Shown here piece by piece: positions 34,033-63,144 of a DNA stretch of 64,000 bases. The notes below the pieces were generated by a model. That model saw nothing but the letters and a program-made list of their open reading frames with translations. It did not search any database and was not told the origin of the DNA. Source of the DNA: Naegleria gruberi (taxonomy: Eukaryota); NCBI GenBank assembly GCA_000004985.1, contig GG738872.1. The stretch is one strand, 5' to 3'. Numbering within the stretch: the stretch's first letter is position 1; every line of letters starts with the position of its first letter. Both the position numbers and the translations under genes were made by a program.

Positions 34033-36494
34033 ATGATTGGCGAACCAGCTGGCGTTAAAAGACTTAAAGTAACCAATACTCCTGGTAAGAATTTGGTTGC
34101 TACTAATTATGCCTATGTCAATGAAAAGGAATTTCCTGAATTTCCAATTTATATTAGAGTGAAGGATATTGTTCTTATTGCTCAATCACATCCTAGTATT
34201 GAATTTGGATCTATTGCTTTGAACAAAATTCAAAGACAAAGTGCTCACTTACCAAACAATGCCGATGCTGAATGTGAGGTTTTCCATGTACCAAAACATA
34301 ACTTTGAACTTTCCTTTGTACTTTTCGGTAAGTATATGTGATTTATTATTTGATATATTAATTGATTTATTGAAAATTTTAAACCGATCATTTTGATGAT
34401 GAATTATTTGATCATCACAATTTTAAATTATCTTTTAATAATTAATATTTATTACTCTAATGACGATAATTTTATACAATAGAAATTGATTTTATTAGTC
34501 CAAATACTGTTACAGATAATGAAGTTGACGGAAAGAGATTAATTCAATCGTTCAAGGAAAATTATAATAGACACATCTTTATTGATAGACAAAAGTTTGT
34601 CATTGATTTTGAAGGAAATATGATTCTTGTTACATTGAAGGAAATGGAAGTTTTTGATACTAAAACATTGCAAACAAATTCAGGAGAACTTAAAGAAGTT
34701 GCTACTATGGGTATTTTAACAAAGAATACCAGTATTCGTGTTGTTAAACCAAAGACATCAACTGTAAAACTTACAAATTTACCATCTGAATCAGCTGGTA
34801 CAACTGATATTTTCAATACTCAAGTTACATTTGAAAAATTAGGTATTGGTGGTTTGGATAAGCAATTGAATAATGTTTTCAGAAGAGCTTTTGCTTCTCG
34901 TATTTATCCAGCTGAAGTTATTGCAAAACTTGGTGTTAAACACGTTAAGGGTATTATTCTTTTTGGACCTCCTGGTACAGGTAAAACACTTGTTGCCAGA
35001 CAAATTGGTAAAATTTTGAATTGTAAGGAACCAAAAGTTATTAACGGTCCAGAAGTTTTGAATAAGTACGTTGGTCAATCAGAAGAAAATATTAGAAAGT
35101 TATTTGCTGATGCTGAAGCTGAATTCCAAGAAAAGGGAGATGACAGTCAACTTCACTTGATTATTTTCGACGAATTGGATGCTATTTGTAAACAACGTGG
35201 TACTGTTAGAGATGGTACCGGTGTTCAAGATTCTATTGTTAACCAATTGTTGAGTAAGATTGATGGTGTCAACTCACTTAACAATATTTTGATTATTGGT
35301 ATGACCAACAGATTGGACATGATTGATGAAGCTCTTTTACGTCCAGGTAGATTTGAAGTTCAAATGGAAATTGGTTTACCAGATGAGAATGGTCGTTTAC
35401 AAATCTTGAAGATTCACACTCGTGAAATGTCAAAGAATCAATATTTGGCTGATGATATTAACTTTGAATATTTGGCTAAAACTACAAAGAACTTTTCAGG
35501 CGCTGAAATTGAAGGTTTAGTTAAATCAGCTGCTTCATTTGCTTTGAATAGACAAATTGATTTACAAAATAAGAAGAAATTCGATGAAAAGAATATTAAG
35601 GTTACAGGAGCTGACTTTGAAATGGCTCTTACTGAAGTTAAACCAGCATTTGGTGTTTCTACTGATGAATTGGAAGCTTACTTGAATCAAGGATTGATTA
35701 ATTATGGTGAGCCATTCCAAAAGTTGATGAATACTTGCAAATCTTTTATCAGACAAGTTGAAACAAGTAGTAGAACTAATTTGTTGAGTATTTTACTTAG
35801 TGGTACTACTGGTACAGGTAAAACTACAATTGCTTCTCACTTGGCTGTTGAAAGTGGTTTCCCTTATGTTAAAATTATTTCTGCAGATAAGATGGTTGGT
35901 TATTCTGAACAAACAATTTGTACACAAATTAACAAGATTTTCCACGATGCTTACAAATCACCATTGAGTATCATTGTGGTTGACAGTATTGAACGTTTGA
36001 TTCAATTGGTTCATATTGGTCCAAGATTCTCCAATTTAATTCTTCAAGCTTTACTTGTTTTGATTAAGAAACCACCACCAGCAGGTAGAAAGTTACTCGT
36101 TGTTGGTACAACAAGTATGGCTGATATTCTTGATAGTTTGGAAATTACCAGAATGTTTAACGTTACAGTTGATGTACCAAGTCTTTCATCAAGACAAGAC
36201 ATTTCAAATATTTGTCTCTCTTCTGGATGTTTCAATTTGGATTCTGATCAAGATAGAGAAACTATGAAGAATATTATGGGATTGATTCCAAATCAAATTC
36301 CAGTTAAAAAGCTACTCTTAGTAACTGAAATGGCTCACACAAGAACTGATATGGATGAAGCTGATGCTGATGAATCACAAAGAAGAGTTACAGTTGAAAA
36401 GTTTGCTCAATCTTTGAGAGATTGTGGTGTGTACGATAGAAAATTACCAATTCCTTTGACAATGCAAGAAGAAGACTCTGAAGATGAAGAGTAA
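34033..36494 (+). CDS. NSF: N-ethylmaleimide-sensitive factor (NSF; vesicle-fusing AAA+ ATPase with N, D1 and D2 domains). Two exons, 34033..34327 and 34483..36494.
   Basis: The D1 Walker A motif is GPPGTGKTLVARQIG with near-identical surrounding sequence, and the D2 Walker A is GTTGTGKT. A 155-nt intron (gtaagt...caatag, 34328..34482; phase 1) links the N-domain exon to the rest. The junction ...SFVLF|GEIDFISPNTVTD aligns to human ...[20 protein letters not shown]. Confidence 0.9.
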
Positions 36495-36643
36495 ATTAAA
36501 TAATTTTGTAATTTTATTTAACAATTGTTTGAATAATACTTGTTTGGCCTGTTCAATGTAAGATCTATAATATGAAAAGATGATCAACAGTCATTCATTT
36601 CTTTCTAATTGATAACTTTCTATTTTTCAAAGTTAACAATTTA

Positions 36644-39619
36644 TTAAATTTCCATTAGCATTGACTTTTCTGATGGAATTCTACTGATAACAGTTTCAGA
36701 GTCATCAATACTATTTCCACTATTACTTGGACTGCTGTATGAAGTGGTGTTCTTTTGATATTTTTCACTCATTTTCAATTGTTGATAATAATCTGGGAAT
36801 ATCCAATATTTAATACCATAGAAAATAAAATCAAATGCCAATGGAGTAACAACACACAACAAGTGAACAATCCAAAACTTTGGTGATTGAACGACAACAT
36901 ACCAAACATAGTATGTAAAATTAGCACTTGTTGAAATGAATTCAATACCAGCATAGGCAAATTGAAAACCATAATAAGTTATAAATGATAAAATCATACA
37001 TAAGTGATGAATAATTGTAATATTTTCCATTTCAAAATAACATTTCAAATTAACAACAATAAAAACACTTGAACAAATTAAGGTAGATAATGACCAAAGT
37101 CCATCATCTCTACCATCTGTTAAAAGTGAACTTGAATTATTTCCATAAATAGCAAAATAGAATATTATAGTAGCATGAATAATTCCACCTAAAATCCACT
37201 TGATAAAAGTAAACCAATTAAAAATGTAATCAGTTCTCAATTGAGCATATAACTTTGGACCAATCTCTGGATCTTCCAATAAATCTTCATTAACATCCTT
37301 TTCGAATAAACCAAATACGAAAGGATTCAATAAAGTGAAAACTAAATTATAAAAAGTTAAAACATATGAATCAGCAATAGTTTGACCAGAACTCATTGTA
37401 TAAAAAGCATAAAATATCTGAACAAATGATATTACAATATTCTTATAAAATGAATATTGAATAAATTGAGCTGATCTCTTATAGGAATACCTGCCATGTG
37501 TCACTAGTAATCTTTTTAACATGTAAAATTTAGGAATTGCATAATCAGATGCTAATTTAGCTTGTGAACCTTCTTTACCCATAATACCAACACCTATTTT
37601 AGCTTTTTGAATCATTGGAACATCATTAGCACCATCTCCAATTGCTAAACCATTTTTACCTAATTTCTTTTTTGCCAAATCAACAAGTTGTGATTTTTGT
37701 TTTGGTGTGGCACGACAACAAATGACAGTTTGACATTTCTTGACAAGTTCAATAAATAAATTTGATGTCTTTTCATTTTCCATACAGAAAGTGAATGAAT
37801 GTCCATCTAATATTAAGGCAATATCAATTTTAGAACTGTCAATTGTCAAATTTACAATTTCTTGAATGTAATGTGATATATATTTAGAACATGACACTTC
37901 GTCATGAATTGTTCCATCTTCACCATTCAATGAATAAATTTTTGATTCCTTTGATAGGAAATTTGACATTTGTGCAATATTAATAGCAGTTTCTCTTTTA
38001 TCACCTGTTAATAACCATAATTGTAAACCTGCATCAAGTAAAAATTTAATAGTTTCTGGAACATTTGGTTGTAAACAATCTTCAATTCCAGTTGCACCAA
38101 CAATATTTAAATTACTTTCCAATTCAAATTCACATTCTTCAATGGCTTGTTTTCTCCTCCTTGAAGACATGATTGATTTAGATGAATTATATTTAGTCAA
38201 CCAAGTATTAAATTCAATTGGTTCAATAAATTTAAATGCTAATAATAAAGTTCTTAATCCATCAATGGCAAAATTTAAAATATGTTGTTCTAATTGTTTT
38301 CTATCCTTTTCATTTTCAGTAGATTTAATGAATGGAAATAGAAAACTATCTGCTCCTTTTGTAAAACAAACATAAATTCCATTATTAGTTTCCATATTTG
38401 GAATTGCAAAGTTTGCCATTTTTCTATAAATGGGATAATCATTTAAAAATTCATTAGGAAATAAAAATATAGTTGACATTCTCTTTCTATCTGCTGTAAA
38501 TGGAATTTCGGCAAGTCTTTCAAAATGATACTCCTTTCCAAATATTTCCAAAATTGTCTTTTTTTCAGAATAACACTTGACTAGGAATCCATTATTTTGT
38601 GCACCCAAAACTAGTGCAACTTCATCAATACTTTCACCTTCAAAAATAGTTTTCAATTGTTCTGTTTGATTTTCCTTTTTAGATTTCTTTCTATTTTTAA
38701 CAATTTTCTCTCTAACTGAAACATTATGACATAGTGAAAGTAATAACAAAGTATTAAATGCTTGAAAGAATTCCATCTCATTGGTAAATGATAATTTTCT
38801 TTCTGAAATGATTGAATCCAATTCATTTTGAGTTAATTCATGAGCAGTATGTTTTTTCTTAGTATGGTAATCTCTCAATTTATCTAAAATTGATCCTAAT
38901 TGACCTTTACAAGTAAAATCATCATGAATATAATCATATGAAATACAACACTTTTTAAATACCATTGAATTTTCAGTCAATGTTCCAGTCTTGTCACTAA
39001 AAATGATATCAACTTGTGATAAGTCAGCATTTAAATCACTCGAAATGGAAAGTGAATTTAAAAATATTTTCTTATCTGAATCATGAGGATCTTGTTCATA
39101 AATTGCCATCTTATTATCCATTGTAATAAACCAAGCTTGAATCATTTTTACAAATTCCAATGAAACAAATAAAGAAACAGGAATCATTAAACTTAATAAA
39201 ATGAAATAAGTTAAAAATGATGAAATTACAAAACCAGTATCTGAAATTCCAATTGGAGTTGGTTGACCAGTATATGTTGCCTTTGTTTTAGCTTGTGTGA
39301 ATTCATAGTATCCCCCCAATCCAGCAAATAATAAACAACATGCAATTTGAATTGTAAATAAAATACCAACTGCATAATTTAACATGGCATTTACAAAACT
39401 AAATTTAACTTTTCCTTTTTGCATATTTTTCATAATTTTAGTATCAGATCCTGTATAGATTACAGTTCCATAGACAAATTGTGTACTTTTTAATATAGAT
39501 CCTTTTAAGAGTAAATTTTGATGTGAAAGTGGTATTTCATTATGAATATTTCCATTATTAGTAATTGTATTTCCATTATTAGTAGTAGTAGTAATATTAT
39601 TATCACCTTGAGGTTCATT
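36644..39619 (-). CDS. P4-type ATPase (phospholipid flippase), 5'-truncated by the assembly gap. The ORF runs from the gap side down to the stop at 36644.
   Basis: It has the DKTGTLT phosphorylation site, the P-type hinge GDGANDVPMIQKAKIGVGI, and C-terminal TM helices. The conserved LLLKGSILKSTQFVYGTVIYTGSDTKIMKN follows a poly-T/N insert. Two in-frame TAA codons lie between the coding part and the N-run at 39641, so the actuator domain and TM1-2 must lie in or beyond the gap. Confidence 0.8.
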   Translation of the reverse strand, partial: NEPQGDNNITTTTNNGNTITNNGNIHNEIPLSHQNLLLKGSILKSTQFVYGTVIYTGSDTKIMKNMQKGKVKFSFVNAMLNYAVGILFTIQIACCLLFAGLGGYYEFTQAKTKATYTGQPTPIGISDTGFVISSFLTYFILLSLMIPVSLFVSLEFVKMIQAWFITMDNKMAIYEQDPHDSDKKIFLNSLSISSDLNADLSQVDIIFSDKTGTLTENSMVFKKCCISYDYIHDDFTCKGQLGSILDKLRDYHTKKKHTAHELTQNELDSIISERKLSFTNEMEFFQAFNTLLLLSLCHNVSVREKIVKNRKKSKKENQTEQLKTIFEGESIDEVALVLGAQNNGFLVKCYSEKKTILEIFGKEYHFERLAEIPFTADRKRMSTIFLFPNEFLNDYPIYRKMANFAIPNMETNNGIYVCFTKGADSFLFPFIKSTENEKDRKQLEQHILNFAIDGLRTLLLAFKFIEPIEFNTWLTKYNSSKSIMSSRRRKQAIEECEFELESNLNIVGATGIEDCLQPNVPETIKFLLDAGLQLWLLTGDKRETAINIAQMSNFLSKESKIYSLNGEDGTIHDEVSCSKYISHYIQEIVNLTIDSSKIDIALILDGHSFTFCMENEKTSNLFIELVKKCQTVICCRATPKQKSQLVDLAKKKLGKNGLAIGDGANDVPMIQKAKIGVGIMGKEGSQAKLASDYAIPKFYMLKRLLVTHGRYSYKRSAQFIQYSFYKNIVISFVQIFYAFYTMSSGQTIADSYVLTFYNLVFTLLNPFVFGLFEKDVNEDLLEDPEIGPKLYAQLRTDYIFNWFTFIKWILGGIIHATIIFYFAIYGNNSSSLLTDGRDDGLWSLSTLICSSVFIVVNLKCYFEMENITIIHHLCMILSFITYYGFQFAYAGIEFISTSANFTYYVWYVVVQSPKFWIVHLLCVVTPLAFDFIFYGIKYWIFPDYYQQLKMSEKYQKNTTSYSSPSNSGNSIDDSETVISRIPSEKSMLMEI

Positions 39620-39640
39620 TTAATTGACCCCTTAATTTAT

Positions 39641-39980
39641 NNNNNNNNNNNNNNNNNNNNNNNNNNNNNNNNNNNNNNNNNNNNNNNNNNNNNNNNNNNN
39701 NNNNNNNNNNNNNNNNNNNNNNNNNNNNNNNNNNNNNNNNNNNNNNNNNNNNNNNNNNNNNNNNNNNNNNNNNNNNNNNNNNNNNNNNNNNNNNNNNNNN
39801 NNNNNNNNNNNNNNNNNNNNNNNNNNNNNNNNNNNNNNNNNNNNNNNNNNNNNNNNNNNNNNNNNNNNNNNNNNNNNNNNNNNNNNNNNNNNNNNNNNNN
39901 NNNNNNNNNNNNNNNNNNNNNNNNNNNNNNNNNNNNNNNNNNNNNNNNNNNNNNNNNNNNNNNNNNNNNNNNNNNNNNNN
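39641..39980. other. Assembly gap (340 N).
   Basis: A run of n characters. Confidence 0.99.
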
Positions 39981-40546
39981 ATGTACATATGTGATTCACC
40001 TTCATCTTCCTCTTCTATGGTATTATTATTATCATGTTGTTCCGATAATTTAAATGAATTATTACAATTTGATCCTGGTAATGATGAGGTTGCTGATGTT
40101 GGCATATTACTATTAGGTGATTGTAATATTATTATATTATTATTCTTATCATCTTGATGAGGTTGACCAGCTGATGATGGTGATTTAAGAATATTACTTG
40201 ATTGATGAGGAGATTGTTGTTGATAATAATAAGGATGATCATCTAAATGTAAGGGATCCAACAAACCAACTGAACTTCTATTTGAAAAGGAATCTAATAA
40301 TTCCCTATCTGATGATGAACCACCACTTGGAGTTGATACTCTATCTTTATGATAGTGTAAATCTATTGTTGTTGTTGTTGTTGTTGTTGTTGATGATTCC
40401 AACAAGTGTTGACGATTATTGTTGAATTCTGTATAATTTAAACCAACAACCATTTTCTTCTGGAGAACAGTTGTAAATATTTGATTAATGATAATAGAAA
40501 TTGCTCTAAATGTTGCACACAACTGTTGGTTGAGATTAAGCAACAA
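39981..40546 (-). CDS. Possible first exon (low-complexity cytosolic N-terminal tail) of the P4-ATPase gene, running into the gap.
   Basis: This ORF has the same orientation directly upstream of the gap. It is Q/S/T/N-rich with an acidic end (EEEDEGES). There is no conserved motif, so the assignment is tentative. Confidence 0.25.
40366..40392. repeat. (TGT/GTT)n microsatellite, ~9 units (encodes the poly-Thr on the minus strand).
   Basis: Direct reading: tgttgttgttgttgttgttgttgttg. Confidence 0.9.
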
Positions 40547-40994
40547 TGGAATCGAGTACTTTTTTCAAAATAGTTCTAATTATTGGAGGAGCATGTTGAG
40601 GACACACCCAATGATTCAATAGTCTCCGGTCTTATTAGGGTTGAATAATCCTTCATTATCGCTGTAATAATTCTTTCTAAGCAGCATTTGGAAGCGTAAC
40701 CACAATTGTTTCCCTACTATGTTATTGTTCAAAAAACAAGTTCGGTACAGCGGGAATAAATTTTAAAATACCGCGCCCAATAACTCGACAGAAACTGTGT
40801 ATTCTAATAATACTGTTGATGACATAAAATAGTATTGAAGAGAAATTAGATGAAATGATGTTAAAAAACTGTAGATTACCAATGAAATGTAGTGATGGAT
40901 TCTTATGTTGTATTACAATGAAACATCAATGCCCTTCAATTTATTTCTATCGCCCAAAACACATATTTTTGTGTGACCCTCAATGCTTCATCTT

Positions 40995-41143
40995 AATGCC
41001 AGGTTTTGAGATAAAAATTTTAAGGATTAGGAAATTGTGTGCGTTTGTATAGAATCACAAGGCATCAACAAGCAATTGCTAAAAGAAACTCATTTTCGTT
41101 AAATACAATGAACCAACATATCTCAAAACCTGGCATATTTTGA
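40995..41143. mobile_element. Candidate MITE-like element (~150 bp) bounded by 17-bp terminal inverted repeats (tgccaggttttgagat / atctcaaaacctggca).
   Basis: The inverted 16-17-mer pair lies at ~40996-41011 and ~41128-41143. The internal segment is AT-rich and non-coding. Its right two-thirds recur at 46088-46179. Confidence 0.3.
41049..41140 (+). repeat. Dispersed repeat, copy A (~92 bp).
   Basis: It matches 46088..46179 at ~93% identity in the same orientation (atagaatcacaaggcatcaacaagcaattgcta...aatacaatgaaccaac..atctcaaaacctggcatattt). Confidence 0.85.
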
Positions 41144-41769
41144 AATTTTCTGAGAATGAAGGCATATTGAATTAAGTTGCTAAAAAAACTTTTTCAAAGC
41201 CCAAATATGGTTATTCTTCCTCCTTCTTACTATTTTCAAAAATTAACAAGAACCTCTTGGTTCATGTAAATTCAACTTTTCAATTTCTTCAGCGTTTTCA
41301 AAAATGATCATCCTCATCATTATTTACCTGCAATACTTCCACTAAATCAATCTTTGTTGAAACGTGATGTATTGCACTCAATAGATAAGATTGCATGACA
41401 CATTTTCCTTTCAATCACACCAGCAATGACTGGTCCAGTATTCACACCAATTCTAATGTTCACAATGAGTTGATCATTCGAATTCCTTCATATAAATCAA
41501 TAGTTTATCATTCAAAGGATGAGACATTTCATAGAGTTTGTGATACCATAAATATATCTGTTGGATCCAAAACTGTTACATTTTGGAAAATAAATTTTGT
41601 TGAGCATTGTAAAAGTTTCTTGTATTTTCTTGAGTTGAAGAAGTTAAGTAATCGGTCATTACTTCTTCAATACCAAAACAATATTGAACTTTTGCATTGA
41701 ATGTAATTGTAATGTTGAGCTGTTGCAAGTATAATAGAACAGATTCATATCTTAATAAGGAGTAAATTT

Positions 41770-41819
41770 NNNNNNNNNNNNNNNNNNNNNNNNNNNNNNN
41801 NNNNNNNNNNNNNNNNNNN
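41770..41819. other. Assembly gap (50 N).
   Basis: A run of n characters. Confidence 0.99.
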
Positions 41820-41842
41820 CCTCGTTAGCTGCTGTGTAATTA

Positions 41843-43687
41843 CTAACCTAATAATTTACATACTTCATATAATAATTCAGCTTTCTTAATAGGCTTAATT
41901 AGAACCTTGTTGATACCTGTGTCAAGTAGAGAATTAATCTCCTCTTTCGCACTGTTTCCAGTTAAAGCTATTATTGTATTATTGGTGTTGTTATCTTTTT
42001 TTCTCTTCTAAGTATTCGTGTTGTTTCTAAACCATTCATGACTGGCATGATGACATCAAGGATGATAAAATCGAATTGAAAGGTCTCACACATTTTTAAA
42101 GCCTCCAATCCATTTTCAGCTTCCTCACAACTACATGATTTAAGAATGTTCTTTACAATATTTCGTATGATTTCATTATCATCAACTACCAAAGCTCGTT
42201 TTCCCACGAGTATTCCCTCTTGATATTTCAAATCTTCTTTTCGGATTTCTTGTTTGTAGGAAGGATGGGTGTATGGTATGGTTATGGTGAAGGTTGACCC
42301 CAATCTCTCAACTGACTCCACCTTAATAGAGTACTTGCATGAGTTTGTGAGAATGTTGAGAAGTACTTGCTGAATTTTGGTAGGATCTGAATACATCATT
42401 TCTGGAACGCTTTCGTCAACACATATTGTTACTTTCAGTTCTTCATGTTCGTATATCTTTACCATTTGGATAAGTTGATAAAGTTTATCTCTGAGGTTGA
42501 AGGTTGATACATTTAGTTTCATAAAGCCAGATTCTAGTTGGGAAATGTCAATTAAGTCATCCAACAGTTGAAGAATGTACTCTGTTGAAAAGTTGGATTG
42601 GATTTCTTAATTCATGGGACATATACGCTATAAATTTAGTTTTTTGTATTAGGTCCTCTTTTGTGGATTCATCGTTTACAGTTATTGCAAGATAAGGATC
42701 ATTTCTAAAAAAGAAACTACTAACAGATATGGAGATGGGAACCAACTCTTTGTTACAATCAAATTAACAAGATGCTTCTAAATATGGTTTACAATGAGTA
42801 TTTAGTCTACTTATTGATAAATCTACACCTGATCTTGTTCTTCTACTATTACAATTGGCGATTGTTTTCACTTTAAACCAAACACCGAGGCAGTGCTTCC
42901 TATCCACTTCAGACCATACAGTATTAGGTATCAAATCACAAATGTGAATTGGATTGGTAGTTATGTTGCCAATGTATGGTGGAAAGGAGACTCCAAACAG
43001 TTCTTTTGCACTCATATTCATTGCTACCACGTGTAATTCCCTGTTAACAACAATAATTCCCTCCTCTAATTCCCTAAATAATGCTAATGACAGTTCGGCT
43101 ATTCACTTTCCCCCAATAGTGGGTTGATTAAGTTATCAAATTGGTTATCACTATTAACAAAATGTGATTCATTTAAGGACTCACTATGCTGAAGCTCGTG
43201 CTCATATAACATGATCAAGTGGGCTAAAGAGTTTCCCAAATATGAGAGGATTGGAACCATCTCCTCATAGTATCCACCCTCCTTGTTAGCAAGTACCAAA
43301 ACACCCACTGTATCATAGCCAAACACGAGAGGTAAGCATAACGCGTTCTCCTTATCAGGATGGACAAGAGGCTTATCGTTTGTCCTAGGAGGCAAACTAT
43401 TGCAAATGATTGTTCTCTTTTCAAGGAATGCTTGAACAAAAAGTGCATGTGAGCCAACGGTTTTGAAAATTAATTTATCTGGAGCTTGAAGTTATCTCAG
43501 AAAAGCTCTTTAATTTTAACATCAAGGAATAGGTACTTGATGTTATCTCAGCTACCTGTTCCGAAAGGTGGCTCATTAAGCACCATTCGCTTACCCTGTT
43601 ATCAGAGTTTTGTAACAGTGTTTTAAAGCCTTGTTTGATGATTTCCATGAACTTGCTCTTCCAACTCTGTAGTGTGAATAAGCTCAT
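41843..43687 (-). pseudogene. Hybrid histidine kinase (GAF - HisKA - truncated HATPase_c - receiver), apparently disrupted: candidate pseudogene.
   Basis: Four consecutive minus-strand ORFs sit in different frames: 43099..43395 (GAF-like), 42764..43030, 42557..42745 (H-box AYMSHELRNP) and 41971..42564 (LIDISQLESG..., N-box LLNILTNSCKYS, receiver DDN...D...MPVMNG). The ATP-binding G1/F/G2 boxes are missing. The receiver domain is frameshifted by an 8-bp tandem duplication (tattattg tattattg at ~41969-41984). It resumes as PIIALTGNSAKEEINSLLDTGINKVLIKPIKKAELLYEVCKLLG, ending at the stop at ~41843-41845. Confidence 0.55.
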
Positions 43688-44226
43688 TTTTTTCAGTTTG
43701 GGCAGACTAACGAAAACTTTTTTTGGAAATATTCCATTAATAATAAGGCCTTATTAGTTAATTTACCAAAAGTATTTTATTTCCACAACACATGGTGGTA
43801 ATTTAGTTTTGAGAATGTTTTGCATCTCATTTGCAGTTCAATCCATTCTATCAAAGTCTGAACATACAAACTATCCATCATTACAATGATTAAAATAATT
43901 CAATAAAGTTCTTCAAAGTAAACTGATTGAATGCGTTTTTCTGAAAGGTAATTCACATCCTTCCCGCAACTTTCGCCACCGACTCTTCTTGATGGTTTCA
44001 GGTTGTAAAGATATTGAAATAAGGAACTAAACATGACAATGCATAGAATAAAATTAAGGCTTGAAAAATGAATTTAGAAGTAATAATGATTTTTTTGGAT
44101 GTTAAAGAGCTAGTTGTTTGATGATATATAGAACATTGTATCAATCTTTTAATATTTTACAAATGATCAACAAAAAACTTCTCATCAAACCCAGTTCCAT
44201 TCTTAACATTTTATTTTATGAAATGT

Positions 44227-45636
44227 TTAATTTACTTTCCTCACAATAAGAGGCCAACCAACTTGAATGACAACGAACTTGTGGATAGTTTTATCATTAT
44301 TGCCAAGTAATTCTTGTTCTTTTTTGGCATATTGTTTAACCTTAGAACTTGCCTCATTTAAGATACTTTCAACTTTAACATATTTGTTTGCCCATTTTTG
44401 AAAAACTAGCATATTCAATAACTGGCTTTCATCAGCTTGTAATAATTCTTTAAATTTTTCCTTAAACATATAAGGTTTCCAAATTCTAATAGTAGAATAT
44501 TGTGATAAATACATTGGTCTCAAACGTTTCAATTTAATGATAAATATGTCATTGTCGGTTGAAATAACAAGGTCAGCTCTTAATTCAGTATATTCTTTTC
44601 CATTGATATGATAATTTGTATATTCCTTTTCTGCTCTAAAAGTAAAATCTTTGCTTCTATATAAAGAATATGATCTCAATGCAGATTCAATACAAGATTG
44701 TAAACCTCTTTCAGACATATCATTGTCAAACACTGTTTCTTGCTTGCTTAAAATACTCCAAAGTAATTTTTTCAAATTATCTTGAGTTGGTTCATTAATA
44801 AAAGTTGATATATCACTTTCACGTAAAGATATAAGTCTACGTAACTGTTCCAAATATTGAACCTTTGTAATTTCATTTGGAATTAACAATTGTTTTGGAT
44901 TCATTTGTTTTGAGGATGATTCTGTGAAAGTAATCATACCATGATAATACATGAATGATAAAGCATTATCACGAATCTTTGATATATCCTCTTCATTGGA
45001 TGGTGGGTCAATGATCTCTCTTAATTTTAGTGAAGGATAAATAGACTCTGTTACTTCAATATAATCTTTAGACAGTAATTGTTGAATGATATCATTTGAT
45101 ACAACTGATGATGCCAAAGTTGCAAAAACATTCTCACTGATCATTATGTTGGTATCTGTTAATATTGATAATGGAATGTCTTGTTTTTGTAAAACAGCAT
45201 TTCTGAAAGGTTCATCTTTTACAAGTTTGTTCAAAAAGAACATTGAAAGAGTTGTGTTAAATAGAGCATGTTTTGAACCAGGAAAATGATAACCATTATA
45301 ATACTTTTTCATGGTTGAAATGGCAGTATCTTGATCATTTCCAAGAATATCAATATTATTCAATGCCATTCTCAGATCATTTTCTGTAAAACCAACCAAA
45401 CCACCAAATATCTTATCAAAGGAAATATTACTGGAAACATTATATCCAGATGCATCTGCAAGAGCAATAGGAGTGATACCAATGATTAAACTACGAAAAT
45501 CTTGTAAACCAACACCTGAAGACCATTTTAATTGTTCAAAGAAAGAACGAATTGGTGNNNNNNNNNNNNNNNNNNNNNNNNNNNNNNNNNNNNNNNNNNN
45601 NNNNNNNAAAAGGATTACAGTTGGAATAAATGGCAC
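44227..45636 (-). CDS. AAA-ATPase_like (PF09820-type) C-terminal region followed by a PD-(D/E)XK nuclease-like (DUF1703/PDDEXK_9-type) domain. The 5' end is interrupted by the gap.
   Basis: Family signatures are GITPIALADASGYNVSSNISFDKIFGGLVGFTENDL...KKYYNGYHFPGSKHALFNTTLSMFFLNKL, and further downstream ELRADLVISTDNDIFIIKLKRLR (D...E.K). The N-run 45558-45607 falls inside the ORF. A weakly related upstream ORF 45807..46055 (EIIEK...FMYPISNFI) sits in another frame. Confidence 0.5.
   Translation of the reverse strand: MPFIPTVILXXXXXXXXXXXXXXXXXXPIRSFFEQLKWSSGVGLQDFRSLIIGITPIALADASGYNVSSNISFDKIFGGLVGFTENDLRMALNNIDILGNDQDTAISTMKKYYNGYHFPGSKHALFNTTLSMFFLNKLVKDEPFRNAVLQKQDIPLSILTDTNIMISENVFATLASSVVSNDIIQQLLSKDYIEVTESIYPSLKLREIIDPPSNEEDISKIRDNALSFMYYHGMITFTESSSKQMNPKQLLIPNEITKVQYLEQLRRLISLRESDISTFINEPTQDNLKKLLWSILSKQETVFDNDMSERGLQSCIESALRSYSLYRSKDFTFRAEKEYTNYHINGKEYTELRADLVISTDNDIFIIKLKRLRPMYLSQYSTIRIWKPYMFKEKFKELLQADESQLLNMLVFQKWANKYVKVESILNEASSKVKQYAKKEQELLGNNDKTIHKFVVIQVGWPLIVRKVN
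45558..45607. other. Assembly gap (50 N).
   Basis: A run of n characters. Confidence 0.99.
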
Positions 45637-46087
45637 AGCTTAAATATTTGAATTGTTATTATAAATAACCAATGTAATGAAGGCAATATAGGTTGCTGAG
45701 AGAAACTCCCAGAAAAAATCTCAACACAAATTCAAATTCTGCAACATGGTTGTTCACACAATTTCTTAATTTGGCAATATAGATACCGATTATATTATCA
45801 CCATATTTATATATTTTCTATTTTAATAAATTTCCTATATTTAAGCTTTCCTAAAGTCTGGTAAATAAATATTACAAAAAAATGCAAACTCAATTCTGTC
45901 AACATAGGTATTACAAAAATCCTCATAAATCTGAGTGATTGGAAATTTGTTAAGCCACAAATAATGAAATTTGAAATAGGATACATAAATTGAGAACTCA
46001 TCATTTTTTCAATAATTTCCTGAGCAGATGCTGAATTGAGATGCATGGTCATCAACTTTCCAACTTGCTCATAAGGAAAATCTGTTC

Positions 46088-46179
46088 ATACAATCACAAG
46101 ACATCAACAAGCAATTGCTAATAGAAATCCATTTTCGTTAAATACAATGAACCAACGAATCTCAAAACCTGGCATATTT
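46088..46179 (+). repeat. Dispersed repeat, copy B (~92 bp).
   Basis: A direct copy of 41049..41140 lying 5.0 kb downstream. It carries only one arm of the 17-mer TIR. Confidence 0.85.
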
Positions 46180-46859
46180 GCTTCATCTTTGTTTACTCAT
46201 TTGAATGAAAGCCAAATGATTCTCTCTTTCATAAATATTAGCCGTTGATATTATAATGCAAAATTGAAAAGACAATTTAGGCTGAGTGTTACTCTTAAAT
46301 ATTAAACATTTCAATTTCTTATATTATGGAGTATTTGATTTTTTGAACTGTTTGCACTGAATATTGAAACAAGCATCAATTAAGATCTTTTAGCAAGGAG
46401 AATGATAAAAGACTTTTATATTATTTATAACTATCTTAACATCCTCATTCCCTTATCAAATGTTTATTCAACATTACAATTCATTTATCTACAGTAAAGA
46501 TGATCTCATTTAGTAAGAGGTCATCATTATCAAAGCAGAAGGAGTAACAACGATGATAGAATCTTTTGTAAACTTTATCCATGTTGAATAAAATAGTCAG
46601 TTTATCTAAAAGAGTACTCATTGCACACTTCAACGTTCACAATCTTCCAATCAATAACAAACATCATCTGGCAGATTTTATTGTAAACACACTCCCACAG
46701 GCCTATTATTACACAACTTCTTTTCAAATGTGATGAAAGTGAGTTACAGTTACTATTCAACAAATGAACACTTTGAATAAAAGATTTTCTTGTTGACAAA
46801 TAAAGGATTTTTCAAAGCCTCTCTTCTTGTGAGTACTCCGAATTAAAAGACTAAAAAAA

Positions 46860-49791
46860 ATGTCGACAAGTAAATTCTCAGCATCATCATCCAATGGTGG
46901 TGCGCTTGTAATGATGATGGCAAGTCTAATGTTATTGCTATTGACATCATTTATTGAAAGTGCTCCAATGTATCAACTTGATAATTTATCTAGAACAAGT
47001 AATGGTTATTCTGGTATTTTAACCTTGACACAAGGACAGTAAGTAAATCATCATCAAGTTCCGAAATTAACACACTAATGATGATGATAACAATGATATA
47101 TTGATGATGTATTGATAATAGAGGTCCTTATGGTGGTGACTATACAAAGTTAGCTTTGGATGTTTACTATGAAACACAAAATAGAGTTCACATTAAAATT
47201 ACTGATTTGGCAAAACAAAGATGGCAAGTTCCAAGTTGGATTATTAAATCAAAGACTCCTGCTAATGAACCTGCTGATAAAGATTATTTGGTCAATTTGA
47301 AAACATCTCCATTTGGACTTGAAATTTATAGAAAATCAACAATGGAATGTATTTTCAATACTACAAATATTCCACTCATTGTAAGTTTATCTCCTATCAA
47401 TAACTGTCAATATATAATGTTATTATTATTACTATTATTATAACTGTATTACAATTTCTAATAATCATGAATTTGGTTATAATATTTGATAACAATTCTA
47501 TGAATTAATCAATAGTTTGAAGATCAATTCATTTCATTTGGTACAAGTTTTGATAAAACTCAAAAATCCAAAGATCAAGGACAAGTTAATATTTATGGAT
47601 TTGGTGAAAGAGCTAGACCATTGAGATATACACCTGGTACTTATACAATGTGGAATTTAGATAATTTGAATACTCCAAATGAAAATTTATATGGTACTCA
47701 TCCATTCTATATGCAATATTATTCTAATAGTGGTCGTGCTCATGGTGCATTCTTATTTAATTCCAATGCAATGGATGTTACAATTACAGATGATAATTTA
47801 ATTTGGAAGACAATTGGTGGTGTTATTGATTTGTACGTTTTCACTGGTCCAACTCCAGAAGATGTTACTAAACAATATCACGAATTAATTGGCACTCCAT
47901 ATATGCCACCTTTCTGGACATTGGGATGGCATCAATGTAGATATGGTTACAAGAGTATTGATGAAGTTAAAACTGTTTATACTAAATATACTCAATATGG
48001 TATTCCATTAGATACTATGTGGAATGATATTGATTATATGGATGGTTATAGAGATTTTACAACTGATCCAATTAGATATCCAAAAGCTGAAGTTCGTCAA
48101 TTTGTTGAAAACTTAAAGGCAAAGAATCAACATTACGTTGTCATTATTGATCCAGGTATTAAATTTGAACAAGGTTACAAACCATATGATATTGGTAAAC
48201 AATTGAACGTTTTCATTAAGAAGAGTGATGGTGTTACTGATATTGTTAACACTGTTTGGCCAGGTTATTGTGTTTTCCCTGATTTTACTAATCCAAAGGC
48301 TATTCCATATTGGGAAAATTTGGTTGCTCAATTCTATTCTGAAATTCCAGTTTCTGGTTTATGGTTAGATATGTAAGTAGTAGATTTTGTTTCTATTTAT
48401 TTAACAATACTTTGGATTACCAATAATAATTGAATCAAATATAATGATATTAATAATAACAAAATAGGAATGAAGTCAGTTGTTTCTGTAATGGTACTTG
48501 TACTCCAACAAAGAAATACCAAAAAGTCAATAACAAATTTGATCCAAATAATCCACCATATGTTCCAGGAGGTAGACAACTCGATATGAAGACACTTTCA
48601 ATGGATGCTGTTCAACATATTTCCATTAATTATAACACTCACAGTTTGTATGGTCTCTATGAAGTTAATGCAACTGTTTCTGTTCTTCAAAAAGTTACTG
48701 GTAATAAGAGACCATTCATTTTAACTAGAAGTAGTTATCCTGGTTTGGGTGCTATTTCTGCTAAATGGTTAGGTGATAATGAAGCCACTTGGGAATCAAT
48801 GAGAAACAGTATTAGTGGTATGTTAGCTATGCAAATGTATGGTGTTGCATTGATTGGAGCTGATATTTGTGGTTTCATTGGTAATACTACTTATGAATTG
48901 TGTGCCAGATGGACTCAAATGGGTTCTTATTATCCATTCACTAGAAATCACAATGATATTAAGGCCAACGATCAAGAACCATACGTTTTTGGTCAAGAAT
49001 TTGTTGATATGACTAAGAGAGTTCTTGCTAATCGTTATTCATTGTTGAATTTCTATTATACTCAATTCTATGATGTTCATGTTAATGGAGGTGGTGTTGT
49101 TCAACCATTGTTCTATGTTTTCGGTCATGCTGATTCAAATCCATTATTGGCAACTATTGATACTCAATTTATGGTTGGTAAATCATTAATGATTATTCCA
49201 GTATTAGAAGCAGGTGTTAAGAGTGTTAAGGGATACATTCCAAAGCATAAGCCAGGTTGGTTTGATTATTTCAGTGGTGAATTGATTTCTGCTACTGGAG
49301 GTGAAACAATGGAATTTGATGCTCCATTGCTTGGTTATACTCCAACTTTGATTGCTGCTGCCAAGATTGTTCAAAAGCAAATTCCATCATTAACTACTTT
49401 TGATACCAGAAGAAATCCATTCCAACTTACAATTGCTTTATGTCAACATGAATTCCATGCTAATGGTCAAATTTATTTAGATGACGGTGAAACTGCTGAA
49501 ACTATTGAAAGAGGAGTTTATTCATTGGTTGATATTCAAGCTAAACGTATTTCACAAAATGTTCTTACTCTCGTTACTAAGGTTGTTAAGGATGAATATC
49601 AAACTAATATTCCAAAATTGGATCAAGTTACATTCTACGGTTATCCATTAACTAGTGAAGTTTGTACTGTTACTGTTAATGGTAATGCATACCATAGAAT
49701 AACAATTGAAGCAAAGAAGAGAATTGTTACAATGCGTGGTCTTGGATTACATTTACTTGAATCTAATTTAATTGTCATTACATGTCAATAA
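46860..49791 (+). CDS. Secreted/lysosomal alpha-glucosidase, glycoside hydrolase family 31. Four exons, 46860..47038, 47122..47380, 47516..48372 and 48468..49791.
   Basis: It has an N-terminal signal peptide (ALVMMMASLMLLLLTSFIESA). GH31 motifs include YGFGERA, the WNDIDYMD region and GLWLDM|NE spanning intron 3. Introns are gtaagt...ataatag (47039..47121, 83 nt; phase 2), gtaagt...caatag (47381..47515, 135 nt; phase 0) and gtaagt...aaatag (48373..48467, 95 nt; phase 2). Exon junctions reproduce conserved GH31 sequence. Confidence 0.85.
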
Positions 49792-50292: not shown

Positions 50293-51516
50293 ATGGTTAA
50301 TAATGATATTACCGTAACTGTAGAAGATGACTACAAGCAAAAGAGCGGAAAGGCTAGATATGAACAAAAAGAAGTTAAGGAATTTGATGATATGAATCTT
50401 AAGGAAGATTTACTCAGAGGAATTTACTCTTATGGTTTTGAAAAGCCATCAATTATCCAACAACGTGCCATCTTGCCAATCACTACTTCTGAACCACCAG
50501 CAGACGTTATTGGTCAAGCCCAATCTGGTACTGGTAAGACTGCTACTTTTACTATTTCATTGCTTCAAAGATTAAATATTTCTCCTGATGTTATCCAACC
50601 ACAAGGACTTGTTTTGGCTCCAACAAGAGAATTGGCTCAACAAATCCACAAGGTCATCATGTCATTGGGTGAATATATGAAGGTTAAAGTACACGCTTGT
50701 GTTGGTGGTACTAAAGTTCAACACGATATTGCCATTCTTGAAGAAGGTGTCCACATTATTGTTGGTACTCCTGGACGTGTTTTCCACATGATTCAAAGTG
50801 GTCACTTGAACGTTAACAGCATTAAGATGTTAGTTATCGATGAAGCCGACGAAATGTTGAGCAGAGGTTTCAAGGATCAAATTTATGCCATCTTTAAGAA
50901 TCTCCCACAAGATATGCAAGTCTGTTTGTTCAGTGCTACTATGCCAACTGAAGTTTTGGAAATTACTGACAAGTTTATGAGAGATCCTATTAGAATTTTG
51001 GTAAAGAAGGAAGAATTGACATTGGAAGGTATTAAACAATTCTACATTTCAGTTGATAGAGAAGACTACAAGTTTGAAACTTTGTGTGATTTGTACAAGG
51101 TTTTGACTATTTCCCAATGTGTCATTTTCTGTAACTCACGTAAAAAGGTCGAACAATTGGCTGAACAACTTAACAAGAAGGACTTTACTGTCTCCTGTAT
51201 GCACGGTGAAATGGATCCAAAGGATCGTGAATTGATTATGCACGAATTCAGAACTAGTGCTTCTCGTGTTTTGATTACTACTGACTTGTTGGCTCGTGGT
51301 ATTGACGTTCACCACGTTTCCTTGGTTATTAACTTTGACTTGCCACGTCACAAGGAAAATTACCTCCACAGAATTGGTAGATCTGGTAGATATGGTCGTA
51401 AGGGTGTTGCCATCAACTTTGTCACCAAAGATGATGTTAGATCCTTGAGAGAAATCGAAAAGTTCTACTCTACTTCTATTGAAGAATGTCCTAACAACAT
51501 TGCCGAATTGATTTAA
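50293..51516 (+). CDS. EIF4A: Eukaryotic translation initiation factor 4A (DEAD-box RNA helicase).
   Basis: Motifs present are [13 protein letters not shown] (motif I), [17 protein letters not shown] (DEAD), SAT, and [19 protein letters not shown] (motif VI). It is a single 407-aa exon with an A-rich Kozak-like context upstream. Confidence 0.9.
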
Positions 51517-57026: not shown

Positions 57027-57341
57027 TTTTTTCAAAGTGATTAAACAGAAAGGCTTTGAAATCATCACCTCAACCAACTACTATTACTTGTAGTGATTTT
57101 GGAGGGAAATTATTTTTGGCGCTCTTTTTTTCAAAGCCTTTTCTCAAGCCTTTCATCTTTTCATCTAAATAATCTTGAACTGGTTAGAGGAAACATTAAT
57201 ATTTCTCAGGATTTTATATGAAATCATTGATGACCTCTTCATTGGAATTTCTTCATTCACACCTAAAAAGTCATTGCAAATTCACCTTTCCATATTCACA
57301 CTTGACTGTCTCTTCATCCTGCCACTCGTCAATCAAAAAAA

Positions 57342-57445
57342 ATGTCTTCACTACCAACAACATCATCACTTGATAATAACAATACTATTCAACAAGAAGA
57401 CAAACATAGACCTACTATATCAATCTCTTCATCTACTAATACTTC

Positions 57446-57480
<35 letters not shown>

Positions 57481-58884
57481 CATATTAATAATTCTAATAA
57501 TAATAATAGTAAAAATAATCATTTATTAAAATCATTCTTTTTAAAAATCTTTCATAAATCCAATAATTCAAATAATTCCAATAATAATGAATTAAAAAGA
57601 AATCAATCATTTTTTGATCGTTTTAAAAGAAAAAAAAAAGATTTAAATGAAAATGATTTATCACCATCAGCTGCAAGTAGTTTATCTTTAAATGATTTAC
57701 CTGATGTTATTAATATAGATGATGATGATGATGATATTCATATTCATGATGATAATGTATCTATTAATAATAATAATAATACTAGTAATAATTTAAATAA
57801 TAATAATTTTAATATTAATAATTTTAATAAATATATTTATTTATTTAATGCAAATTCTAATAAATTAAATATTTATAATAAATATAATGATGAAAATGAT
57901 GAAAATGATAATGAATTAAAATGTATAAATGAAATAATGGATCATACAGATGATATAAATTGTATTTTAAATTTTGATAATTTATTATTTACAGGTTCAC
58001 ATGATAATTCAATTAATTTTTATAAAATTAATGAAAATAATTTAAATTTAATTACAAAATTTCAAGATGAAACAAATACTTTAGAAAGTTTATCAAATTA
58101 TAAAAAAACAAATTTAATTTCTGGTTCAAGAGATAAAATTATTAGAATTAGAAATTTAGATTCTGAAAATGGAAATTTAATAAAATTAGAAGGTCATACT
58201 AGTTGGATTCATTGCGTTTATGGTGGAAGTGATAATTTAAATAATTCTAATAATTCTAATTCTAATAATATATTATATGAATCACATTTATTTTCATCAC
58301 AAAGAAGTACAACATTAAATGAAAGTGATATCTATATTTGGAATATTGAATATGGAAATATAGTACAAAAATTACGTGGACATGAATCAACAGTTTATAA
58401 AATGACACAAATTAATTCACTTCTTGTTTCTGCATCACAAGATAGTAGTGTTAAATTATGGGATTTAAAATCAAATCAATTAGTTGGTGATTTGAGAGGT
58501 CATAATGATTGGGTTAAAGATGTTATTAATCCATCAATTCTTAATTCATCATCTTCATTATCATCTACATCATCATTTGAAATTGTTTCATGTTCAATGG
58601 ATGGTAGTATTAAATTATGGGATATTAGAAAAATGTCAACTTCAACTAGTCATTCAAATGATTTAAATAATTCTATTAATAATAATTCCAATAATAATAA
58701 TGGATCATCATCATTAATAGAAACTATTTATCAAAATGAACAAATTGGATTTAATTGTATATATCCACATGATAGTAAATATTGGTATTTTGGATCTAAT
58801 CAAAGTGGTAAATTACATTTATATAATTTCAAAGATAAGAAATTTAAAGAATTACATCTTGTTAGCACCACCTTGACTATGTGA
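57342..58884 (+). CDS. WD40-repeat protein with a long N/D-rich N-terminal region. The start codon is uncertain.
   Basis: WD repeats sit in the C-terminal half (SGSRDKIIRIRNL, SASQDSSVKLWDL, SCSMDGSIKLWDI). An A-rich-context ATG at 57342 (MSSLPTTSS...) is in frame 0 and terminates at ~57487 inside an (AAT)n tract. The long ORF 57175..58884 is in frame 1. Confidence 0.5.
57447..57476. repeat. (AAT)n microsatellite, ~10 units.
   Basis: Direct reading: aataataataataataataataataat. Confidence 0.9.
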
Positions 58885-61713: not shown

Positions 61714-63144
61714 ATGCTCAACAACAAGAATGAATCCTCTTGTTCAACATCACAATCATCATCATCAAAATATGAATATTCAATACATCCATCATTATAT
61801 TTATTAAAAAACAAAATATCATATAATAATCATTTCTCACCTTCTATTTTATTATTTAATCATTCCGATCATTATTCCGATCATCAATTAAATCAATTAT
61901 CTATTCATAATAATATTATTAATATTAATAATAATACTAATCAATCCAATCAATCAGAATCTACTAATCAATTATCTATTCATAACAATAATAATAATCA
62001 ATTTAATAATCAATCTATTCACAATAATAATAATAATAATCAATTTAATAATAATAATAAATTAAATAAATATTATAAATTAAAAAATTATACCAATCAT
62101 TATGGAGGTATAATTAAAATAAATGAAGAATCTAATTTACTATGTATAGGTACAAGTGAAAGTAATTCTTTAATTATTTGTAAAATTCAAAATGATAATC
62201 AAAATGATCAAGAATTAAATTTTGAATTAAAATCTAAATTTTTAGAATATCATACAAGTGAAATTTTAGATTTTGAATTTTATAATCAATTTATATTTTC
62301 ATCTTCATTAGATTCAAATATATCTTTATATGATTTAAATATTTCTAAAAAAGTAAATAATATAAATTTAGAAAATCAAATAATTAATAATATAAAAATA
62401 GATAAAAATATTCCATTATTATATTTTTGTAGAGAAAAATCAATTTCAAGTTGGGATTTTAGATGTAAAAATTATAATACAATAATTTCATCAAATTCTA
62501 AAAATAATATTTTAAATTCTAATAATAGATTAGATTTATATAGAAATATAAAATTAAAAAATGATAATAATACAATTATATTAACTAGAAGTAATGGTAT
62601 TATTGAATTTAGAGATTTAAGATTTAATAAAAATGTTCATTATTTATTTGATAAATTTGAACATTTTATAAATATAAATCCAAATACAGAAAATTTAATT
62701 TCTATAAATGGAAATGGAAATATTTATGAAATTAAAGAAAATTATAATTCAAATAATATTAATGATTCTATTTATAATAATTATTATCATTTTAATTTAA
62801 TTGGAAATAATCAATTTTTTAATAGAAATATTGAATATTCTAAATATGGTAATTATATTATATGTGGTAATGATTTAGGAATGACATTTATATTTGAATG
62901 TTTTAAATATTCTAAAAATAAATTAATTGAACCATTAACAATTATAGAAAGAAATGAAAAATTACCAATTAAAAATACTTATTTTATAAATAATTCTAAA
63001 TTTGGTGAATATGATCATTTTATTACTAGTTTTAATGATACTATACATTTATATAAATATAATAATAATTTAAATAATATAAATGAAAATATAAATAATA
63101 ATTTAAATATAAAAAATAAATATCTAAATAATTTAATGATTTAA
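61714..63144 (+). CDS. N-rich protein with degenerate WD40-like beta-propeller repeats (476 aa).
   Basis: Repeat-like strands are SSLDSNISLYDL, SISSWDFR, IIEFRDLRF and TSFNDTIHLYKY. The N-terminal 120 aa are poly-N/Q. Function is unknown. Confidence 0.45.
   Translation: MLNNKNESSCSTSQSSSSKYEYSIHPSLYLLKNKISYNNHFSPSILLFNHSDHYSDHQLNQLSIHNNIININNNTNQSNQSESTNQLSIHNNNNNQFNNQSIHNNNNNNQFNNNNKLNKYYKLKNYTNHYGGIIKINEESNLLCIGTSESNSLIICKIQNDNQNDQELNFELKSKFLEYHTSEILDFEFYNQFIFSSSLDSNISLYDLNISKKVNNINLENQIINNIKIDKNIPLLYFCREKSISSWDFRCKNYNTIISSNSKNNILNSNNRLDLYRNIKLKNDNNTIILTRSNGIIEFRDLRFNKNVHYLFDKFEHFININPNTENLISINGNGNIYEIKENYNSNNINDSIYNNYYHFNLIGNNQFFNRNIEYSKYGNYIICGNDLGMTFIFECFKYSKNKLIEPLTIIERNEKLPIKNTYFINNSKFGEYDHFITSFNDTIHLYKYNNNLNNINENINNNLNIKNKYLNNLMI

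Follow-up and report, generated by a model that had tools for sequence, protein, structure and literature searches.

The 64-kb stretch of DNA analysed here (the window) is part of the Naegleria gruberi NEG-M draft assembly. Three open reading frames in it show exact matches, to EFC43743.1, EFC43668.1 (eIF4A), and EFC43751.1. The subject of this report is a 5.2-kb segment of the window that carries a decayed hybrid histidine kinase gene, a remnant of a cyclase domain, and an open reading frame of the DUF1703 family. At the left end of the segment is a complete copy, and at the right end a truncated copy, of a small repeat unit designated M. The bounding sequences suggest that the inserted unit consists of positions 40995–46178 (~5.18 kb) and is situated in a divergent promoter region, with a P4-ATPase flippase gene on one side and a GH31 alpha-glucosidase gene on the other. 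Runs of N are found in the window at 39641–39980 (340 N), 41770–41819 (50 N), and 45558–45607 (50 N). The latter two are the assembly gaps within the segment that had been noted in an earlier reading of the DNA made without database searches (the sequence-only reading).

Repeat units at the borders of the segment

Two direct repeats of 92 nt are present on the plus strand at positions 41049–41140 and 46088–46179. They are identical in 85 of 92 bases (92.4%, blastn E-value = 2e-34), and the mismatches are at unit positions 4, 14, 35, 41, 42, 70, and 71. The homology stops abruptly at both borders and nothing is shared beyond them. The paired ~92-bp repeats of the same orientation and ~93% identity described in the sequence-only reading are thus real. 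A larger tandem duplication as the source of the 92-nt repeats was rejected because there is no homology outside of the 92 nt; a 20-nt match (41270/46301) is out of register.

The outer left terminal inverted repeat (TIR) is the 18-nt sequence ATGCCAGGTTTTGAGATA at positions 40996–41013 on the plus strand, i.e. the 17-mer ATGCCAGGTTTTGAGAT plus A. Sequences at 41119–41136 and 46159–46175 are perfect reverse complements of it, with an 18/18 match within M and a 17/17 match between the outer ends of the segment. Exact copies of the TIR 17-mer are found three times, compared with 0.27 expected even when up to 3 mismatches are allowed. The left TIR is followed by a 35-nt spacer and the left 92-nt repeat, which ends in the inverted TIR at 41119–41136, and these make up the complete unit M (40995–41140, plus strand, 146 nt). 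M is AT-rich and non-coding and shows a hairpin fold closed by the TIRs (z = −4.6). With its TIRs, its hairpin and its recurrence at a second locus, M resembles a MITE (a transposable element of the miniature inverted-repeat type). The right 92-nt repeat is a 5′-truncated M consisting of M positions 55–146, the first 54 nt being absent, and its inverted TIR at 46159–46175 forms the right terminus of the segment. The outermost ends of the M pair (40996 and 46175) are therefore inverted 17-mers, and an 11-nt duplication lies outside them. No further copies of M are found in the window. Rfam and tRNA searches with M gave no match, and an RNA gene or a tRNA-derived element was rejected on this basis.

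The sequence GCTTCATCT occurs only twice within the 64 kb, at 40985 and 46180. At both sites it extends to the 11-mer TGCTTCATCTT (40984–40994 and 46179–46189, plus strand), with 0/11 mismatches between the left and right copies, and this forms a putative target-site duplication. An 11-nt word common to the 16-nt outward flanks has a p of about 6e-5 relative to random flank pairs drawn from the window. The distance between the duplication and the TIR core is 1 base on the left and 3 bases on the right. According to the sequence-only reading the motif recurs just outside each repeat copy. It does flank the segment, but the left motif is 55 nt upstream of the left 92-nt copy; it is directly outside the 18-nt inverted repeat at 40996–41013, which that reading did not include. 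A duplication flanks the composite alone; neither copy of M has one by itself.

A second locus with M sequence was found through the DUF1703-family gene. The best homolog of the open reading frame outside NEG-M is on a 7.5-kb metagenome contig, L001, from the European Nucleotide Archive (ENA). Over 1.8 kb the window is 99.3% identical to L122, another contig of this sample, and the L001 protein shows 95% identity to the N. gruberi protein NAEGRDRAFT_78045, the last 400 residues being identical. L001 therefore belongs to N. gruberi too, as the paralogous locus (locus A), and this near-identical strain was used as a proxy for the NAEGRDRAFT_78045 locus of NEG-M. Only two parts are common to L001 and the window, the DUF1703 gene (L001 3975–5294 = window 45557–44226) and 80 nt of M. 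Positions 5319–5398 of L001 correspond to window positions 41075–40996 (M positions 1–80) with 89% identity, and the similarity ends precisely at base 40996, the outer one of the TIR. The M copy in L001 is internally truncated and has the same left terminus. The flanks of L001 and the window are unrelated and the 3.15 kb with the kinase is not in L001. The M copies are 89–92% alike, compared with about 65–73% for the adjacent 3′ ends of the genes; this makes M a more recent feature than the duplication of the gene, which is the behaviour expected of a mobile family. Degenerate TIR 17-mers (14/17) are also seen in L001 at 2768–2784, which is 394 nt upstream of the gene, and at 5440–5456, which is 42 nt outside the M copy. 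Both have the same orientation as the M terminus.

Open reading frames and remnants within the segment

A hybrid histidine kinase pseudogene with the order GAF-PAS-HisKA-HATPase_c-REC is found on the minus strand at positions 41843–43687. It is full-length but dead. Pfam shows minus-strand fragments in shifting frames, GAF_2, HisKA, a truncated HATPase_c (profile positions 2–30 only), and Response_reg. A tblastn search with the Naegleria lovaniensis protein C9374_009980 covers residues 8–763 of 764 in six pieces, in frames −1, −2, −1, −2, −2, and −1. The damage consists of at least four frameshifts, an in-frame stop at 42764–42766, and the loss of about 60–75 residues of the HATPase_c ATP-lid. 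A functional gene would display HisKA, a full HATPase_c, and a receiver in one uninterrupted open reading frame, which is not the case here. Introns do not account for the breaks, as adjacent frames overlap and there is no room for them, nor do sequencing errors, because the stop and the 60–75-residue deletion are also present. The decayed GAF-hybrid histidine kinase of the sequence-only reading is confirmed as a dead copy; the pseudogene spans the entire gene and does not represent a captured fragment.

The best homolog of the kinase is N. lovaniensis C9374_009980 (39% identity, E-value = 1e-127), with the next match at 1e-33, and no closer relative is found among N. gruberi proteins. C9374_009980 has the same domain order as the pseudogene (GAF_2-HisKA-HATPase_c-Response_reg) and the two align end to end. 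The pseudogene differs in that it is frameshifted and stop-bearing, has lost part of the ATP-lid, and is in a non-syntenic place. To the left of the kinase, across the gap at 41770–41819, a decayed remnant of an adenylate/guanylate cyclase catalytic domain is present on the minus strand in several frames (41301–41700). Its PF00211 match (E-value = 2e-4, 21.5 bits) is slightly below the 21.9 cutoff. To the right, a spacer at 43688–44226, with no detected homolog and no strand assigned, separates two minus-strand genes.

The second of these genes is an open reading frame of 443 codons (44227–45557, minus strand), which by homology is the 3′ part of a DUF1703-family gene and a paralog of NAEGRDRAFT_78045. 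The 5′ part would fall inside the gap at 45558–45607 or past it. DUF1703 proteins consist of PF09820 (AAA-ATPase_like) plus PF08011 (PDDEXK_9) (PMC6387759, PMC3424549). The family is mostly bacterial and of unknown role, and its paralogs recombine in Cardinium (PMC6387759). The open reading frame matches PF09820-bearing proteins of Naegleria and Willaertia with E-values of 1e-209 to 1e-95. The amino acid identities are 76–77% in N. gruberi, 57% in Naegleria fowleri, 53–56% in Willaertia, 44% in N. lovaniensis, and about 25% in bacterial DUF1703 proteins. A profile search gave more than 6000 matches, thousands of them bacterial proteins with both PF09820 and PF08011, mostly from Planctomycetaceae and Bacteroidia, in agreement with the earlier statement that the family is mostly prokaryotic. 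The earlier label of a PF09820/PF08011-type gene holds for the family, by homology (E-value = 1e-209), but the visible 443-codon open reading frame itself has no Pfam match, even at E = 10, and PF08011 is also undetected. PADLOC, NCBIfam and PDB sequence searches with the 443 codons were all empty, and a defence-system or curated-family label was accordingly rejected.

In P0001, the full-length paralog encoded on L001, PF09820 is at residues 78–300, upstream of the point that corresponds to the gap edge of the window open reading frame, and PF08011 is below threshold even in this protein. The 480 nt past the gap (45608–46087, no strand assigned) do not encode PF09820. This stretch, possibly the upstream region of the DUF1703 gene, contains no open reading frame with a family match and no repeats. 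We infer that the ATPase half of this copy is hidden in the gap, loss being the alternative. The gap is at the point where the open reading frame and its paralog are 100% identical, and a typical assembly break is expected where paralogs are identical. Within the 480 nt, near the right end of the segment, positions 45755–45770 give an inverted match of 15/16 nt to M positions 32–47 (ATTAGGAAATTGTGTG), which is marginal (E about 0.3).

A naturally short isoform with its start near the gap was suggested by P0004, a 442-residue Willaertia model, and was discarded, as the N-terminal region is found to be encoded upstream in the Willaertia DNA. The model, ABK040_007533 of Willaertia magna (JBEGDK010000031.1; L121 7455–8000), is N-terminally truncated. 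Its upstream DNA encodes the ATPase region, in which the Walker A stretch is low-complexity sequence with stops, either a pseudogene or an assembly error. The DUF1703 gene was also considered as the mobility gene of the element and rejected, since flanking TIRs are lacking at the DUF1703 loci of N. lovaniensis, Willaertia, and the metagenomes, which are among ordinary host genes.

The E...D...ExK motif and an alpha-beta-beta-beta-alpha-beta C-terminal domain are found in the family. The AlphaFold model of the window open reading frame (mean pLDDT, the predicted local distance difference test, of 73) shows this C-terminal arrangement, which fits a PD-(D/E)XK core. Foldseek matches are weak, none with E ≤ 0.001, and are mostly to PD-(D/E)XK proteins (R2 RLE, Bax1, CidB/CinB, SduA, McrC, Can2, and Cas4). 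The highest Foldseek probabilities against PDB (0.96–1.00, with a TM-score of about 0.2–0.3) are for the Wolbachia cytoplasmic-incompatibility nucleases CidB and CinB. The window copy retains the nuclease residues E310 and K344 as well as the D of RADLVI. However, the (D/E)xK motif reads IIKLK in the window copy and IIEFK in all relatives, so that the catalytic acidic residue is replaced by Lys and the catalytic set of E, D and (D/E)xK is incomplete. The open reading frame is thus a family homolog but, as judged from these residues, probably not an active nuclease. Its homologs bear PF09820 and its paralogs recombine as in Cardinium, whereas the window copy has no Pfam match, lacks an ATPase half in the assembled sequence, and carries KLK in place of ExK; the heterolobosean clade as a whole shares only about 25% identity with the bacterial proteins of the family.

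The nucleotide identity between the open reading frame and L001 decreases from 100% at the gap edge to about 65–70% at the 3′ end, accompanied by an increase in Ks from 0 to about 1. By its C-terminal domain, the window copy is about equally distant from the N. gruberi paralog (0.53) and from N. fowleri (0.55), and the paralog is nearer to Willaertia (0.74). The open reading frame is thus an old paralog, the 5′ two-thirds of which was recently homogenised with NAEGRDRAFT_78045 by gene conversion. The Ka/Ks is 0.22 for codons 1–270 and 0.38 for codons 271–443, every indel is a multiple of three, and in simulated neutral divergence the last 173 codons stay free of stops in no more than 0.4% of trials. 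The frame is therefore under selection. Several residues beside the gap differ between the window copy and the NEG-M paralog, P0002. In L001, positions 3680–4080 (P0001 residues about 170–300) form one patchy tract that is the sole difference from the NEG-M protein. Residues 283–300 of the L001 copy are of the window type (EQLKW...SLIIG), a conversion tract from a window-type paralog, which implies that the window-type paralog has, or had, the region of residues 283–300.

Synteny and the origin of the segment

Contig L123 of N. lovaniensis and contig L124 of N. fowleri show colinearity with the window across the RTEL1, AAA ATPase, GH31, eIF4A, CFAP65, WD40, and EF-hand genes. The distance from the AAA ATPase gene to the GH31 gene is 196–282 bp in these relatives (L123 14464–14660, L124 14824–15106) versus 10.3 kb in N. 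gruberi (window 36494–46860). The 10.3 kb consists of the flippase gene and the 5.2-kb segment. The flippase gene runs from 36644 to about 40546 on the minus strand and is split by the 340-N gap. As the segment is missing at the syntenic site in both relatives, it is lineage-specific at this position. This supports the accessory-like position given to it in the sequence-only reading, the gene order of the relatives being kept around the site. In N. lovaniensis, the homologs of the kinase gene and the DUF1703 gene are on two other contigs with unrelated neighbours and without TIRs.

Two further features of the window are outside the segment. The eIF4A gene (50293–51516; L123 10001–11224) is inverted relative to its neighbours between N. 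gruberi and the two relatives, i.e. in the mapping of N. gruberi to the relatives the flanking genes are reverse and eIF4A is forward. Positions 57175–58884 and 61714–64000 are extremely AT-rich, unlike the remaining window; the last 2 kb has a GC content of 15%, and mechanically called open reading frames have a GC content at third codon positions (GC3) of 0.04–0.10.

The outer TIRs, the 11-nt duplication, the same terminus at a second locus, and the absence from two relatives together point to a single insertion of M-bounded host DNA. The reading preferred here, with a probability of about 0.5, is that the segment is an M-bounded composite ('macro') transposon that moved by means of the outer end of a complete M and that of a fractured one. 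We infer a transposase-mediated movement in one step. Two ends of M, a small non-autonomous class II element, would bound the unit in direct orientation, a transposase supplied in trans would use the outer end of each M, and everything between the M ends would move as a composite. The cargo is ordinary DNA of the host and not foreign, consisting of a full-length hybrid kinase that has since decayed, the cyclase remnant, and a DUF1703-family (AAA-ATPase-like plus PD-(D/E)XK) paralog. A dead but complete kinase without a closer N. gruberi parent fits relocation and not copying. The transposon shape proposed in the sequence-only reading is upheld, and strengthened, by the outer inverted repeats of 17/18 nt, the 11-nt duplication, and the second copy ending at the same terminus.

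Several observations weigh against a composite transposon. The flippase gene is also missing in N. lovaniensis and N. fowleri, so there is no clean empty site and gain and loss are unpolarised. These are two other species, neither conspecific, and the absence of the segment rests on them. No transposase-like open reading frame is seen in the segment or adjoining it, where the neighbours are the P4-ATPase and GH31 genes. Only three M-related copies are available for comparison. A scan of metagenomes from the Joint Genome Institute (JGI) with the 17-mer gave 116 stretches; in a comparison of the retrieved loci with M, the few matches that reach slightly past the 17-mer were judged to be chance, in unrelated sequence. 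The two scaffold gaps are inside the unit and its internal order depends on mate-pair scaffolding. The M ends are also explicable by DNA entering a resident M or by conversion guided by M homology.

In an alternative account, the 146-nt M would have come first with its 11-nt duplication and would later have received about 4.95 kb of host DNA, so that the 5-kb block never transposed as such. Entry could have been by double-strand-break repair, by template switching, or from an M-flanked donor through recombination or conversion, with 92 nt of M duplicated in the process. In favour of this, the left M is complete, having both of its TIRs, but no matching duplication is found at its own right end, 41140. 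The direct orientation and sharp borders of the 92-nt copies agree with such an event, and the conversion between DUF1703 paralogs in N. gruberi shows that ectopic recombination operates. A target duplication of 92 nt is, however, unlike a product of simple end-joining, and an M-bounded donor is required just as it is for the composite transposon. The 11-mers differ at 0/11 positions and the 92-nt copies at 7/92, which mildly favours the outer event being the younger. Later entry into M is the main alternative, a possible explanation though a doubtful one. It is unlikely that the kinase and DUF1703 genes are native to the site, with two independent M insertions on either side of them and a coincidental 11-mer match. 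The cargo does look like normal chromosome, with whole genes and spacers in one orientation and of host composition, and a closer parental copy of the kinase is not found in N. gruberi. Against this, the 11-nt match is exactly in the outward flanks (the p of about 6e-5 given above), neither M copy has a duplication of its own, and both genes are missing at the syntenic site of N. lovaniensis and N. fowleri and have their homologs elsewhere. In an assembly artefact, the contig 41820–45557 or contig ends bearing the repeats would be misplaced and the real locus would hold a solo M. This is distinctly improbable. Two 50-N gaps are indeed within the unit, the second where the open reading frame is 100% identical to its paralog, a typical assembly breakpoint; but the junctions of M with other sequence (41140/41141 and 46087/46088) are both within contigs, and M at 146 nt is far below the read length of Sanger-era sequencing, the method known to have been used for NEG-M. 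The 7 differences between the 92-nt copies exclude a collapsed or duplicated stack of reads, and the residue differences from P0002 beside the gap also argue against misplacement.

The sequence-only reading further raised recent acquisition of the ATPase/nuclease gene, and a bacterial island in which this gene and the kinase arrived recently by horizontal transfer would account for a DUF1703 family that is overwhelmingly bacterial (the more than 6000 profile matches) and for a hybrid kinase with many bacterial relatives too. The nearest relatives of the DUF1703 copy are, however, those of N. gruberi, N. fowleri, N. lovaniensis, and Willaertia (44–77% identity, versus about 25% for bacteria), and the kinase is nearest to N. 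lovaniensis (1e-127 versus 1e-33). The GC content of the segment is 31.6% versus 31.1% for the window, the GC content of the open reading frame is 29%, and its GC3 of 0.20 is inside the host range, so that the proposed check for foreign composition returned host-like values. The DUF1703 copy also recombines with a resident paralog. The clade is an old heterolobosean resident; recent horizontal transfer is not supported and was rejected on the distribution of homologs and on composition, and a bacterial island has next to no probability. It is very unlikely that the DUF1703 gene is not passive and that, as at the Medea locus of Tribolium, the TIR composite carrying it is a selfish or defence-type module, here of a free-living protist. 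The gene may in that case be selected to stay open, be diversified by conversion with its paralog, and owe its spread to the element. There are few hints of this, namely the maintained frame, M sequence beside both N. gruberi paralogs, and the weak structural matches to CidB/CinB.

Relation to known elements and significance

Composite or 'macro' transposons formed from two class II elements are known from the macrotransposition of Ac and fractured Ac in maize and from transposable elements bounded by FB in Drosophila. The N. gruberi segment is like these in that kilobases of ordinary DNA lie between a pair of TIR element copies, of which one is incomplete, with inverted outer ends and one duplication. 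It differs in that no transposase partner, second composite copy or empty site has been seen. M itself is MITE-like, being 146 nt long, AT-rich and non-coding, with 18-nt TIRs and a hairpin, and being present at two or more loci with the same terminus. The left M differs from a MITE in lacking a duplication of its own. The unit is also like a Pack-MULE in that it is TIR-bounded and non-autonomous, carries host coding cargo, and has an 11-nt duplication (the 9–11-nt class). However, Pack-MULEs carry short gene fragments with intact parents and have TIRs of about 100–200 nt, while the N. gruberi unit has 18-nt TIRs, whole genes plus spacers, and a kinase without a closer parent. The 11-nt duplication is in the Mutator range, but the 18-nt TIRs and the whole-gene cargo do not fit Pack-MULEs and no superfamily is assigned. 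A search of the literature for Naegleria MITEs or DNA transposons found nothing specific, and the TIR family of M is apparently undescribed.

In Tribolium, a 21-kb composite Tc1 insertion is found at the Medea locus (PMC3144190) and is reported to hold a DUF1703 homolog of bacterial origin (PMC6387759, PMC3144190). The DUF1703 family is thus common to the Medea cargo and to the open reading frame of N. gruberi, but a drive or toxin-antidote phenotype is not implied by the N. gruberi data. The parallel may be taken as a curious one and as a lead only.

The segment is a real feature and adds a further case to an already known type of event. The insertion explains the presence of a dead kinase and an unannotated gene inside an otherwise conserved syntenic block. 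It also draws attention to two assembly gaps, which are likely to conceal a real gene's ATPase half. The "prokaryote-type" gene is here an old resident that evolves by conversion between paralogs, which guards against a false call of horizontal transfer. The interest of the segment is modest unless the DUF1703 copy is more than a passenger. It is a candidate for class II activity and transposon-mediated gene relocation in Naegleria, the mobile elements of which are little described.

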